In this document: positions 44,778 through 56,955 of the stretch, in pieces
Layout of the letters: the number at the start of each line of letters is the position of its first letter
Numbering within the stretch: the stretch's first letter is position 1
IMG/VR virus record: IMGVR_UViG_3300034095_001964
Reading direction: 5' to 3' (one strand)
Length of the DNA: 64,000 bases
Origin: an uncultured virus (IMG/VR IMGVR_UViG_3300034095_001964)
Taxonomy: Duplodnaviria > Heunggongvirae > Uroviricota > Caudoviricetes
The notes under the pieces: generated by a model
Told to the model about the DNA's origin: nothing
The model's input: only the letters and a program-made list of their open reading frames with translations
Databases searched by the model: none
Program-made: the position numbers and the translations under genes

Positions 44778-45971
44778 ATGATTTCTAACCGACTCCTGTC
44801 TGTTTTTGGCGGTGTGTCCGCGCCGACACCACCATCACCGCTCACCATGGGCTGGCAGCCGTCAGTTGCGGCGAAGAACGCGCAAAATACAATAGTAAGT
44901 GATGAAGGAAATTTGGTGGTGGCCAAAAGATTTGGTGTTGATGCAAATGTAACCATAAATGGCGTTACTTTTATCGGAACTGCACAATCATACGGCACTG
45001 GTCAAGGCGTTGGAACTCCAACATATACATTCTTTAGTGATACAGGCACTGCAAGTCCTGAATTAATTTCGCTATATTCATATTTTACCTTTGGAATACA
45101 AGGTGGCGCACACACCATATCTGGGTTAACCACTGGAGCCACTTACATGTTGCAGTGGTTTTTTGCTGATGAGAGAACCTCAGGCGATATTGCTACCAGA
45201 AATCAAAGCGTAACAATTGCTAACTACGCAAATACTTTCCCGGCGCAGCTGGTAGCAAAAGCAACCAAATGTTATTTCGTTGCAACAAGCACATCACATG
45301 ATATTGTTATTGGTGGTAATGAAGATGGGCATATAGCCGCGTTTCAAGTGAGACAAATACCAGCTGTTAGCACGTCGCTGTCAGCATCCGCGGCAACCAT
45401 CAATTTTGGCACAAGTGCTTCTCTCACATGGAGCGCAACCAATGCTGCAGCAGCAGCCATATCTCCAGGTGTTGGCCCAGTATCAATTACAGGCGGAAGC
45501 ATTGCTGTTGCGCCAACCTCTACAACAACATATACCATTACTGCCTTTAGTTCTGTTGGATTAACCGCTACGGCCAGTGTCACAGTTAGTGTTGTGACCA
45601 CACCGCCAGTCATTGGCACACAACCAGCATCACAAACAATCGTTAGTGGAAGCACTGCCACCTTGACGGTAATGGCAAGCGGAGGCGGCACATTATCCTA
45701 TGCATGGTATCAAGGCACTAGTGGCACTACAACCACAAGTGTTGGAACCAATGCAGCCAGCTTTACCACACCATCCTTGACCAGCACCACAAGTTATTGG
45801 GTGCGTGTCACCAACAGCGCTGGCTCTGTAGACTCCAGCACTGCTACGGTTACTGTTACGGCTCCGGTTCCAGTTATAAGTAGCCCTGACACCGCCACTG
45901 GAACAGTCGGCACTCCGTTTAGCTATCAGATTGTCGCTTCTAGCAATCCAACATCATACACTACTTCATAA
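44778..45971 (+). CDS. Ig-domain structural protein ending in an N-terminal half putative-Ig domain
   Basis: PVIGTQPASQTIVSGSTATLTV..LSYAWYQG..YWVRVTNSAGS Ig domain; ends PVISSPDTATGTVGTPFSYQIVASSNPTSYTTS*. Confidence 0.75.
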   Translation: MISNRLLSVFGGVSAPTPPSPLTMGWQPSVAAKNAQNTIVSDEGNLVVAKRFGVDANVTINGVTFIGTAQSYGTGQGVGTPTYTFFSDTGTASPELISLYSYFTFGIQGGAHTISGLTTGATYMLQWFFADERTSGDIATRNQSVTIANYANTFPAQLVAKATKCYFVATSTSHDIVIGGNEDGHIAAFQVRQIPAVSTSLSASAATINFGTSASLTWSATNAAAAAISPGVGPVSITGGSIAVAPTSTTTYTITAFSSVGLTATASVTVSVVTTPPVIGTQPASQTIVSGSTATLTVMASGGGTLSYAWYQGTSGTTTTSVGTNAASFTTPSLTSTTSYWVRVTNSAGSVDSSTATVTVTAPVPVISSPDTATGTVGTPFSYQIVASSNPTSYTTS

Positions 45972-45980
45972 ATACTACAT

Positions 45981-54400: not shown

Positions 54401-56955
54401 CTTTGCCTTATACGGCCGCAGTCAACAGTTCGGTGGTTAAATCAGTATCGCATGTCCCAGATGTGCCAGCTGGACGTTCAACGGGCCATCCACTGTATAT
54501 TAAGGATTATCAAATTTTAACTGTGGTAGCAGTGGCACCAGCATCTAATAGTTTTCGCCCACCTTATCGTGGCGATGGCAGTCGCACGAGCACCTGGACC
54601 AAGGCTGATTTAAAATATAATAAGCTGGCAATGCGGCCTAAAGCACAAGTGCTTACGTATTTGCCAGACAAGGCTGCGCTTGAGGCTGCCTTTTCCAATG
54701 TATGGTTTGAATATAGCGGTGCTTGGCTAGGCCGTTATACACACCCATTCTATATGGCTCCTAGCGGTTATGGACGGGATATTGCGAACAACACCGGAGA
54801 CGCAGCGTTGTTGCTAAATCTGGACTACACAGCTGCCGAAAAGGAAAGTTTACTGATTGGGTTGGTTCAATATGGCATTGACATTGCTGGTATTATTGCT
54901 AAAGGCGGATCGTGGATGGCTGACGGCGGCCATAACATTGGCCGACTATCGCCGTTGATTATTGCAGCATTTGTTTTGGACGATACAACTTTAAAGAACT
55001 ATACTAAAGGCATAGCACAAAAGTTCCAAGAATATCAACAAACTTTCTTTGTAGAGCAAGCGGATATTGATCGTAACGGTTTAGTCGGCTCGGCTGGCAA
55101 TGGTGATTTTCCAGTTCTTTACGCACCCAGAGATCTTGGAATGCCTGAGTGGGGCATTCGGCATGGAAGTGGATTTCCCACTTGGGATAACAATTTCTGG
55201 CAAGCGTCCTATCGTGATATTAACGGTGGTGCATTTACTGCACCAGCAATGGCAGCAAAAGTAATGGGAGCCCGTGCTTATATTGACTATGAGCCATTCT
55301 TTAAATATGCCGAGCGACACGTAGATTTTGAGCGCAGCAGCTCGTATGGCGGTGAACTTAGTTCCAACTTTACACCAGGCTTTCATTCAGATTTTCATGG
55401 CGCATTTAATGATGCTCCTCTTGGTTATACCGCTGGATCGATTGATGTGGCATGGAGCGCAGCTGCCGGAGCAGTAACTGAGTATAGAGTATACACTAAA
55501 CTTGCATCAGATAGCACCTTTACGCTTGCCCAAACACTGCCGTCAACCGCGCGCTCAACAACGGTCAGCAGCCTTGCTTTTAGTACCAACTATACCATTG
55601 AAGTTGGTGCATACAATTCAAGCACACAGATAGAAACTACAGTACTCAGCCCATACAATCGATATACACCGCCTCAGTATTCGCCATATCGTGGTGCTGG
55701 TGTCGTAAGCGCCTGGGGAAAGCTACCTACCAACGGCTCGTTTGCTGTGGCATGGAGCGCGGCCACGCCTACACCATCTGATTATGCAGTATATGTTAAA
55801 CGCTCAGGGCGGCCAGACGACGAATATGAATTGTATGAAACAGTGCCGTCAAATGTATTGTCCACCGCCATTAAGGATCGTGTTTTTAGAACTGACTATA
55901 TCATTAGAGTTGATGCACGTACTGCGGTTACACCAGCAACCAGTCCGGCTACCTATACTTCCGCCACTGTTCTCACTACATCTGCGCTACGTGCTGTTGA
56001 GGCGATTAGTGGCAATGCAATAACAATTGTCATTCCAACCCGGCCAGCTGGTTATCCAGCACCAACCAGTTACAAAGGATACTATCGTACAGGATATGGT
56101 CTGCCGTGGAACGATGGCCCCAAGAGCGCTGCGTCTCAATTGTCGTTTATTGGACTAGCGCCAAATACTCAATATCAAATAAAAGTAACACCTTATTTTG
56201 AAAACCCCGATGCTGTCAATGGAGTTGCTCAAACAATTTCTGAAGGGCCAGATTCCAATATGGTTCTCTGTTATGTTTCACAGTCCATCATAACAATGCC
56301 GCCTGGCCTAACGCTAAATACGGTCAGCGGCCTAATAAGTGGCACTCCTACAACGGCTGGCACTTATCCGCTCACGCTAAGTGCAACAAATGCCAGCGGC
56401 ACTGGTACCAAGGCATTGACCATTACCATAAGTCCCGCTGCTGCTGTCTGGAGCGCTGGCCCTTGGACAAACGACGCCGATTCAGGAATCATTGGCACGT
56501 CTGCATACACTGTTGCCGTGAATTTGGCCGGTGCCGCAGTCACCGTGAACGGCGTGAATTTCCAGAGCAGTGTCACAAGCGGCCCTAACTTTTCGATTGG
56601 CGGAAGCATTAGCAATTTTGTACGAGAGTCAGCTGTCACTGGCAACAGTGCAACGCTAGCGTTGGATTTCATTTATGCTGGCGATCCCCGCACGGTGACG
56701 CTTACCAACCTTACTCCTGGATCAACGTATGAGACAAGTTTGTTTTCCTATGGCTGGGAAGCATCTGGACGCGTTCAAACGTTCACGTCTGGCAGCAATA
56801 CGCTTACGCTTGATCAAGATGTTTATGGCATTAACAACGGGATTCGCATTGTATACACCTTTGTGGCGGACAACACTGGTACTAAGGTGTTGACCATCAC
56901 GCCAGCCACTGCCAATACCTTCCACCTGGCTGCACTAGCTAACCGGTTGGTATAA
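51436..56955 (+). CDS. large modular virion protein 2 (two enzyme-like modules, cupredoxin-like insert, Fn3 repeats, Ig C-half)
   Basis: 1839 aa; N-terminal ~900 aa closely similar to 47393..51415. Confidence 0.8.
   Translation: [1839 protein letters not shown]

Follow-up and report, generated by a model that had tools for sequence, protein, structure and literature searches.

Complementary halves of a He_PIG domain in neighbouring phage fibre genes, a candidate non-covalent connector between protein chains

A 64,000-nucleotide stretch of DNA from an uncultured virus (IMG/VR IMGVR_UViG_3300034095_001964), hereafter the window, carries four adjoining genes, A to D, across which the Ig-like domain He_PIG is divided into complementary halves. 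Gene A, which encodes a fibre protein, ends with the N-terminal half of the domain (N-half, 33 residues). Gene C consists of two enzyme-like bodies, a C-terminal half (C-half, 47 residues) and a second N-half at its very end, whereas gene D has a C-half and no N-half before it. We propose, with a probability of about 0.5 and from comparison of the sequences, that modules resembling glycan-active enzymes interrupted a fibre gene and that the half-domains left on different chains rejoin non-covalently. The positions of all parts are given in Table 1.

The original prediction, made from the letters of this DNA, had quoted peptides from genes A, C and D, all of which were found at the places it gave. 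It had also placed both cuts at the same point of the domain, with the C-half of gene D lacking a preceding N-half, and this was confirmed by a custom He_PIG model. Trained on 300 of 1078 intact repeats and applied to all six reading frames of the window, it gave exactly four significant matches, all of them partial, comprising two N-halves and two C-halves that are cut at the same model position. No further He_PIG was found in the six frames of the 64 kb, and no complement lies hidden in another frame. The halves are thus exact complements, as had been claimed, and are balanced two to two.

Profile searches support the assignment of the C-halves. The isolated C-halves of C, D and a related locus (L001) match positions 48-96 of the 96-position Pfam profile He_PIG (PF05345), with E-values of 1e-11 to 4e-10 and scores of 40-46 bits against a whole-domain cut-off of 24, as second halves of the domain would. 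The intact He_PIG of another relative, L008, matches the profile at positions 2-96, and the N-half peptides alone gave no match in Pfam. In neither C-half of the window does a first half stand directly before the second half in the same chain, whichever frame is read.

Gene A ends with ...PVISSPDTATGTVGTPFSYQIVASSNPTSYTTS (...NPTSYTTS) followed by TAA (45969-45971), and the tail of gene C reads (GAT)7-G-LPPGL...TITINP, the five residues AAIPV, PNITSDSTATGHTGVAFTYQITATGNPTSFAAY and TAG. A phmmer search of the collected proteins with the N-half of A gave 1289 domain matches, and in 1167 of them the motif [LMIVF]PxG[LMIVF] comes next. The cut is therefore seamless, with nothing lost or duplicated. 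The canonical He_PIG sequence across it is PTSYxxxGLPxGL, and joining the ends gives PTSY-TTS / G-LPPGL from A to C and PTSF-AAY / T-MPPGL from C to D.

A search of relatives for the same split point, which the original prediction had suggested, found it in P0006, P0376, L008, P0285, P0141 and L001. P0006 is 83% identical to A and also ends with ...NPTSYTTS, with three changes among the 33 residues of the N-half. L008 encodes a longer homologue of A, in which one intact He_PIG precedes the lectin domain and the chain closes with an N-half that ends in ...PTSYA; a homologue of B and a D-like gene come next. The 1959-residue protein P0376 has the same architecture as this A homologue and ends in ...PTSFA. 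The orthologue of C, P0285, possesses a tail of C-half and N-half identical to that of C, but behind three GAT triplets, and the orthologue of D, P0141, has the same orphan C-half behind the same upstream peptide. In L001, a C-like body 2 runs straight into a diverged C-half and then into a D-like tail domain. The C-half has the same starting point (LPPGL or MPPGL) whether it follows (GAT)n, as in C, the end of FN3, as in D, or the enzyme body directly, as in L001.

The split is not an assembly error and the stop codons are real, since identical contigs of another sample cross them. Contigs of run X3, from another lake sample and another year, show 0 differences over 44318-48044, 51127-52051 and 54018-57248, which together take in both N-half stop codons and the orphan C-half of D and thus all three junctions. 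The explanation that sequencing or assembly errors created the stops, or that read-through or splicing yields intact domains after all, is already largely refuted, and we consider it extremely improbable. It could draw on the stop of A and the ATG of B (45969-45983), which are in frame and 9 nt apart; however, the equivalent gap in L008 is 14 nt and out of frame, so that the in-frame spacing is probably a coincidence. Moreover, read-through of A would lead into the beginning of gene B, and B lacks a C-half, and the stop of C is backed by further in-frame stops (TAG TAG ... TAA). With these extra stops behind C and the A-B frame lost in L008, there is no conserved possibility of read-through. 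Proteins from independent database entries terminate at the same place, and an Rfam search found no intron, with two sub-threshold rows only. No metagenome contig contains an N-half joined to a C-half, although joined forms might still exist at low frequency, because rare variants are lost from contigs. The contig joints listed all lie in or beside collagen-like 9-nt repeats or the repeated domain at 44000-44250 and 53552-53853.

Judging from codon comparisons, both halves are under purifying selection, with a cut that is fixed across lineages. In Nei-Gojobori counts with Fisher tests, the C-halves of C and D differ by 15 synonymous (sd) and 4 non-synonymous (nd) changes, with a synonymous divergence (dS) of 0.51, a non-synonymous divergence (dN) of 0.04 and an omega of 0.08 (p 1e-6), which bears out the synonymous excess noted in the original prediction. 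Omega is 0.33 for body 1 of the same two genes. The N-halves of A and L008 give an omega of 0.22 at a dS of 1.1 (p 0.003), with 0.32 for the rest of A, and the C-halves of D and L001 give 0.24 (p 8e-5). As its alternative, the original prediction had named fossils of two insertions into an ancestral tandem-Ig gene. Decaying fossils are not supported, because the halves are complementary, balanced and under purifying selection, and their cut is conserved in relatives.

The interrupted gene implied by that alternative fares better. In three related proteins (P0007, P0214 and P0404), one chain contains the A-like lectin domain together with Ig domains and the D-like distal domain, but neither He_PIG nor bodies. 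A and the tail of D are therefore parts of one functional fibre unit, and the locus looks like an interrupted fibre gene, in which 10.3 kb (gene B and the bodies of C and D) now lie between A and the D tail. Genes C and D are paralogues that share 77-91% nucleotide identity over their first 2.4 kb (47395-49800 against 51444-54161), so the "two insertions" are more likely one event and a duplication. The ancestral fibre gene would have encoded, in this order, a lectin-like domain, Ig domains, He_PIG spacers and a distal tail domain. Cassettes with large, probably glycan-degrading bodies would have interrupted the He_PIG loop between the third and fourth strands, and a later duplication would have given rise to the second such interruption, each leaving the 33-residue half on the upstream protein and the 47-residue half behind the inserted body. 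The simplest path, more likely than two insertions, is one interruption of a He_PIG spacer and then duplication of a unit composed of body, C-half, N-half and stop.

Module exchange at such loci is ongoing; L001 is 93% identical to C at the nucleotide level in body 2, whereas the identity is 69% for the C-half and 65% for the tail. This frequent exchange would also suit an explanation that we regard as unlikely, namely that the halves are scars of recombination. They would be leftovers of module shuffling at He_PIG repeats, in which the C-half serves as an in-frame linker, the N-half is a harmless tail, the halves do not pair and the proteins attach to the virion in another way. The mosaic nature of the paralogues C and D and the P0007-type proteins without any He_PIG point in the same direction, and the 146-nt direct repeat formed by the C-halves could drive a deletion that leads to an L001-like gene. 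Yet omega is 0.08 to 0.24 in three of the four half-domain comparisons, at synonymous divergences of 0.5 to more than 1, the core residues of He_PIG are kept and the scores of the halves resemble those of halves from intact domains. In addition, the free C-terminal tail of 33 residues is constant in length within two residues among four A-type sequences, and one would expect selection to remove or remodel a half sandwich whose hydrophobic core is exposed.

According to the reading that we prefer, in which halves of different chains rejoin, an N-half and a C-half would fold together into one complete He_PIG sandwich. The non-covalent link would restore a rod consisting of A, He_PIG, He_PIG and the distal tail domain, from which the bodies of C and D would hang as side branches. 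With its core exposed, half of an Ig sandwich is not expected to be stable alone. Co-folding is the most economical reading, given this instability, the retained core residues, the equal numbers of the two halves and the single-chain arrangement of their carriers in relatives. We infer the binding of the halves, its stoichiometry and the enzymatic nature of the bodies. Complex prediction with A 300-424, C 1246-1340 as the partner and D 1580-1839 gave 0.71, 0.71 and 0.72, compared to 0.00 and 0.00 in the partner-replaced controls; the control with chain 3 replaced reached 0.76 and missed the specificity mark, and the prediction is counted neither way. An AlphaFold2 model of the D tail with its orphan C-half, from a five-row alignment, has a mean pLDDT of 44.2, which is too low to judge the fold of the C-half.

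The partners might also be others than those proposed. Since AAIPV alone separates the two halves of gene C, closure within one chain is probably prevented by this linker, which from the topology of the Ig fold appears too short, and pairing between chains would be expected. Such pairing could be a homotypic swap between two copies of C, or the N-half could add its strands to a different virion protein, without an A-C-D chain. We consider this quite improbable: A has no C-half and D has no N-half, so that a purely homotypic scheme leaves both unsatisfied, and no other He_PIG-like acceptor is encoded in the window. Addition of strands as a means of docking has a precedent in phage A1002, in which fibre dimers dock on the nozzle-rope protein by β-sheet augmentation (PMC13730344). 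As there, the fibre subunits considered here would be joined by a β-sheet shared between chains; however, the A1002 fibres add strands of complete domains to a dock domain (PMC13730344), whereas here one domain is split over two genes.

The original prediction had further paired the halves in gene order, A with C and C with D. This pairing found no support, as the C-halves of C and D are identical at all but 4 of 47 residues, three of which are C-type in P0141, an orthologue of D. No specificity code is visible in the C-half residues when C, D and P0141 are compared. Pairing is probably promiscuous, given that the C-halves are nearly identical, and it may yield A-D or A-(C)n-D assemblies; with an N-half and a C-half both present in C, the chains could vary in length. 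More tentatively, and at somewhat less than even odds, the half-domains may act as a plug-in connector that joins any protein ending in an N-half to any protein with an orphan C-half. It would mount interchangeable enzyme modules on one fibre in A-(C)n-D chains of variable length, and cassettes bordered by half-domains could pass from one fibre gene to another at any He_PIG spacer.

Several points weigh against the rejoining of the halves. The C-halves of C and L001 give an omega of 0.44 (p 0.04), and the selection tests rest on 31-47 codons each, with wide confidence limits. A C-half inside a long protein must keep its frame anyway and may be retained as a spacer. The eight orphan halves lie between the 22nd and 97th percentiles of the He_PIG model scores of 713 halves cut from intact repeats, but this control is biased, as the intact repeats were gathered with the N-half of A as query, and only 98 of the 778 held-out repeats stem from proteins outside the training set. 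Given the paralogy of C and D, the coinciding cuts probably trace back to a single event with subsequent duplication and are thus not independent. Likewise, all split cases may descend from a single ancestral event, in which case the recurrence of the cut in relatives is no independent evidence either. Moreover, the split was found in a small clade only. The motif of the C-half was sought in 83 records, comprising the window and 82 locus records (L006 repeats L001), and occurs as an orphan in the window and L001/L006 only, and as part of an intact domain in L008. Among 28 proteins that share the distal domain, the C-half precedes it in P0141 only. The last 60 residues of 493 collected proteins end at model positions 34-35 only in the window's own proteins, P0006, P0285 and P0376, and two others stop earlier and look truncated. 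Finally, further halves could be sought in 64 kb of the genome only.

The bodies of C and D may be glycan-degrading enzymes. The AlphaFold2 model of body 2 of gene C (61-row alignment, pLDDT 85.7) shows a β-sandwich followed by a helical domain. A Foldseek search with this model gave no match at E <= 0.001, and sequence searches of the PDB and NCBIfam with body 2 gave none. As to an α/α toroid of polysaccharide lyases or glycoside hydrolases, fold comparison with VIA gave Z 5.6 as its best score and Z 5.2 to a chondroitinase, and many of the weak rows are glycan lyases or hydrolases, all below the tool's guide value for noise. With weak rows only from the fold searches, the label "depolymerase" is no more than inferred.

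By sequence similarity, the bodies are a widespread module. A high-GC phage (L002) encodes a two-body protein without add-ons, and a bacterial locus (L009, 6946-8355) encodes a homologue of body 2 that comprises 469 residues and is 56% identical. The N-terminus of this homologue has a hydrophobic stretch that, judged by eye, resembles a signal peptide. Its neighbours are glycosyltransferase, chain-length and ABC-transporter genes, in a cluster that looks like one for exopolysaccharide or O-antigen synthesis. This gene context suggests that the enzyme is host-derived and acts on exopolysaccharide.

Chains of proteins that complete one another are known from chaperone-usher pili, in which each incomplete Ig-like subunit is completed by a segment of the next subunit (donor-strand complementation), giving a non-covalent chain. 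The original prediction had likened the halves to this system, and the likeness is a loose one. Here too, an incomplete Ig-like fold would be completed by a segment of another chain; however, the defining feature of one missing C-terminal strand, supplied by an N-terminal donor, is absent. What is missing makes up about a third of the domain (model positions 2-35), and instead of one strand from an N-terminal extension, a three-strand half from the C-terminus would complete a four-strand half, as counted in a low-confidence model. In addition, the family is He_PIG and not pilin, the genes lie in a baseplate and fibre cluster, and a phage would not be expected to encode a chaperone or usher, for which no search was made.

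Branched complexes of several depolymerases, of the CBA120, G7C and PhiK64-1 types, dock through dedicated N-terminal anchor domains. As in these phages, side-by-side genes would encode enzyme-bearing proteins that mount on one fibre or adaptor, but the proposed connector is a split spacer domain; searches of Pfam and PHROGs with A to D gave no match described as an N-terminal anchor domain. Split inteins and gene-fission pairs are naturally split proteins that reassemble. If the halves bind, they would share with these a fission within the fold and a function kept by association of the fragments. They differ in that the fragments would join without splicing chemistry, the fold that is split serves as a structural spacer and the interruption consists of whole extra genes and bodies, about 4 to 5 kb. 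The C-half, linker and N-half of gene C also read like a stretch of the He_PIG arrays in bacterial surface proteins (P0129 and P0131), in which, unlike here, N-halves continue into their own C-half in the same chain.

In searches of open-access papers and bioRxiv preprints, no description was found of a split Ig-like domain or of strand complementation that joins phage fibre proteins, and nothing on He_PIG in phages bears on split domains. The arrangement would be fragment complementation used as a fibre connector, akin to known fragment complementation and, as the sequences present it, new in that use. If the halves co-fold, they would form a natural, genetically encoded split-Ig connector, like engineered split-protein tags but derived from gene fission. 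This would explain how large enzymes can be added to a fibre without losing the link to the distal receptor-binding domain, and would represent a new docking principle for branched receptor-binding complexes. The pair of 33 and 47 residues would also be a small tool for protein engineering.

Table 1. Genes A to D, their half-domains and the partial matches of the custom He_PIG model in the window
Feature	Position	Strand	Remark
Gene A, fibre protein: lectin-like N-domain, Ig-like domains (Pfam Ig_7), terminal He_PIG N-half	44778..45971	+	ATG 44778
N-half 1, end of gene A	45864..45968	+	He_PIG model 2-37; then TAA 45969-45971
Gene B: FN3 and concanavalin-A-like lectin (Laminin_G_3), no He_PIG part	45981..47375	+	Pfam, six-frame model
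Gene C: two enzyme-like bodies, (GAT)7, C-half, linker AAIPV, N-half	47393..51415	+	
Body 2 of gene C: β-sandwich then helical domain, possible glycan-degrading enzyme	49715..51091	+	model
(GAT)7 in gene C: 9-nt tandem repeat, Gly-X-Y periodicity	51092..51154	+	
C-half 1, gene C, LPPGL...TITINP	51158..51298	+	Pfam He_PIG 48-96 of 96
N-half 2, end of gene C, PNITSDSTATGHTGVAFTYQITATGNPTSFAAY (PNITS...NPTSFAAY)	51314..51412	+	He_PIG model 2-35; then TAG TAG
Gene D: C paralogue with extra inserted domain, different second body, FN3 repeats, C-half, tail domain	51436..56955	+	
C-half 2, gene D, MPPGL...TITISP	56296..56436	+	Pfam He_PIG 48-95 of 96; no N-half before it in any frame
Distal tail domain of gene D, W.Y..WT.DADSGI... 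family, 172 residues	56437..56952	+	fused directly to A-like proteins in relatives
Model match, end of A	45864-45971	+	model 2-37
Model match in C, C-half	51134-51304	+	model 30-86
Model match in C, N-half	51308-51409	+	model 2-35
Model match in D, C-half	56290-56445	+	model 36-87

For gene A, a longer open reading frame (ORF) that starts with GTG at 44697 is also open; the orthologue P0006 begins at the equivalent of the ATG given in Table 1. Gene B adjoins the A homologue in L008 as well. The (GAT)n tract is a length-variable linker immediately before the C-half: its 9-nt repeat GGCGCAACT (Gly-Ala-Thr) is present in seven copies in gene C and three in P0285, and in none in L001. With seven triplets (three in P0285), the tract is short for a collagen-like triple helix, and its match to Pfam Collagen, with an E-value of 0.052, is below the cut-off. 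The element CATAAATA stands directly after both N-half stops (45967-45974 and 51419-51426) and resembles the T4 late-promoter box; with 4 copies in the window against 5.4 expected, it is not significantly enriched.

Judged by its genes, the window covers the tail region of a T4-like myovirus, and genes A to D belong to its tail-fibre cluster. PHROGs profiles identify baseplate tube cap, wedge and hub-lysozyme proteins at 20.8-34.8 kb, followed by a run of fibre genes. The public runs in which this stretch occurs are lake or freshwater metagenomes, nine of which contain at least half of its words; no RNA run is among those listed, which has no bearing on expression. Among annotated phages, megablast with 44000-57000 and tblastn with gene A gave no match. 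With gene C, tblastn found 23 records (21 Mycobacterium and 2 Microcystis phages), all at less than 60% identity and covering the bodies only. The tail of C matched 53 records, 48 of them Gordonia phages, and among the matches listed the Gordonia genes are annotated as major tail protein; no split was seen in them, although they were not inspected one by one. Scans of IMG/VR gave one distant locus with gene A, four with gene B and no locus with gene D.

Genes for an RNA ligase, an RtcB-like tRNA-splicing ligase and an ATP-dependent DNA ligase are clustered at the start of the window (1091-8162). The profile of the gp5-like baseplate hub-lysozyme finds two adjoining, overlapping ORFs, of which 24598-25602 matches it at 16-147 together with lysozyme, and 25584-26396 matches it at 318-551; the baseplate hub may thus be encoded as two genes. 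Downstream of gene D, the fibre genes 56959-60168 and 60573-63020 contain long collagen-like Gly-X-Y runs, and in lake metagenomes, contigs of many other organisms stack on these repeats. A domain of the collagen-like fibre gene upstream of A (42370-44772), located at 44000-44250, recurs at 53552-53853 with 76-79% nucleotide identity and corresponds to the extra insert of gene D. A GHPFWI-type domain, the kind inserted in gene D, is fused to an A-like lectin domain in P0040.

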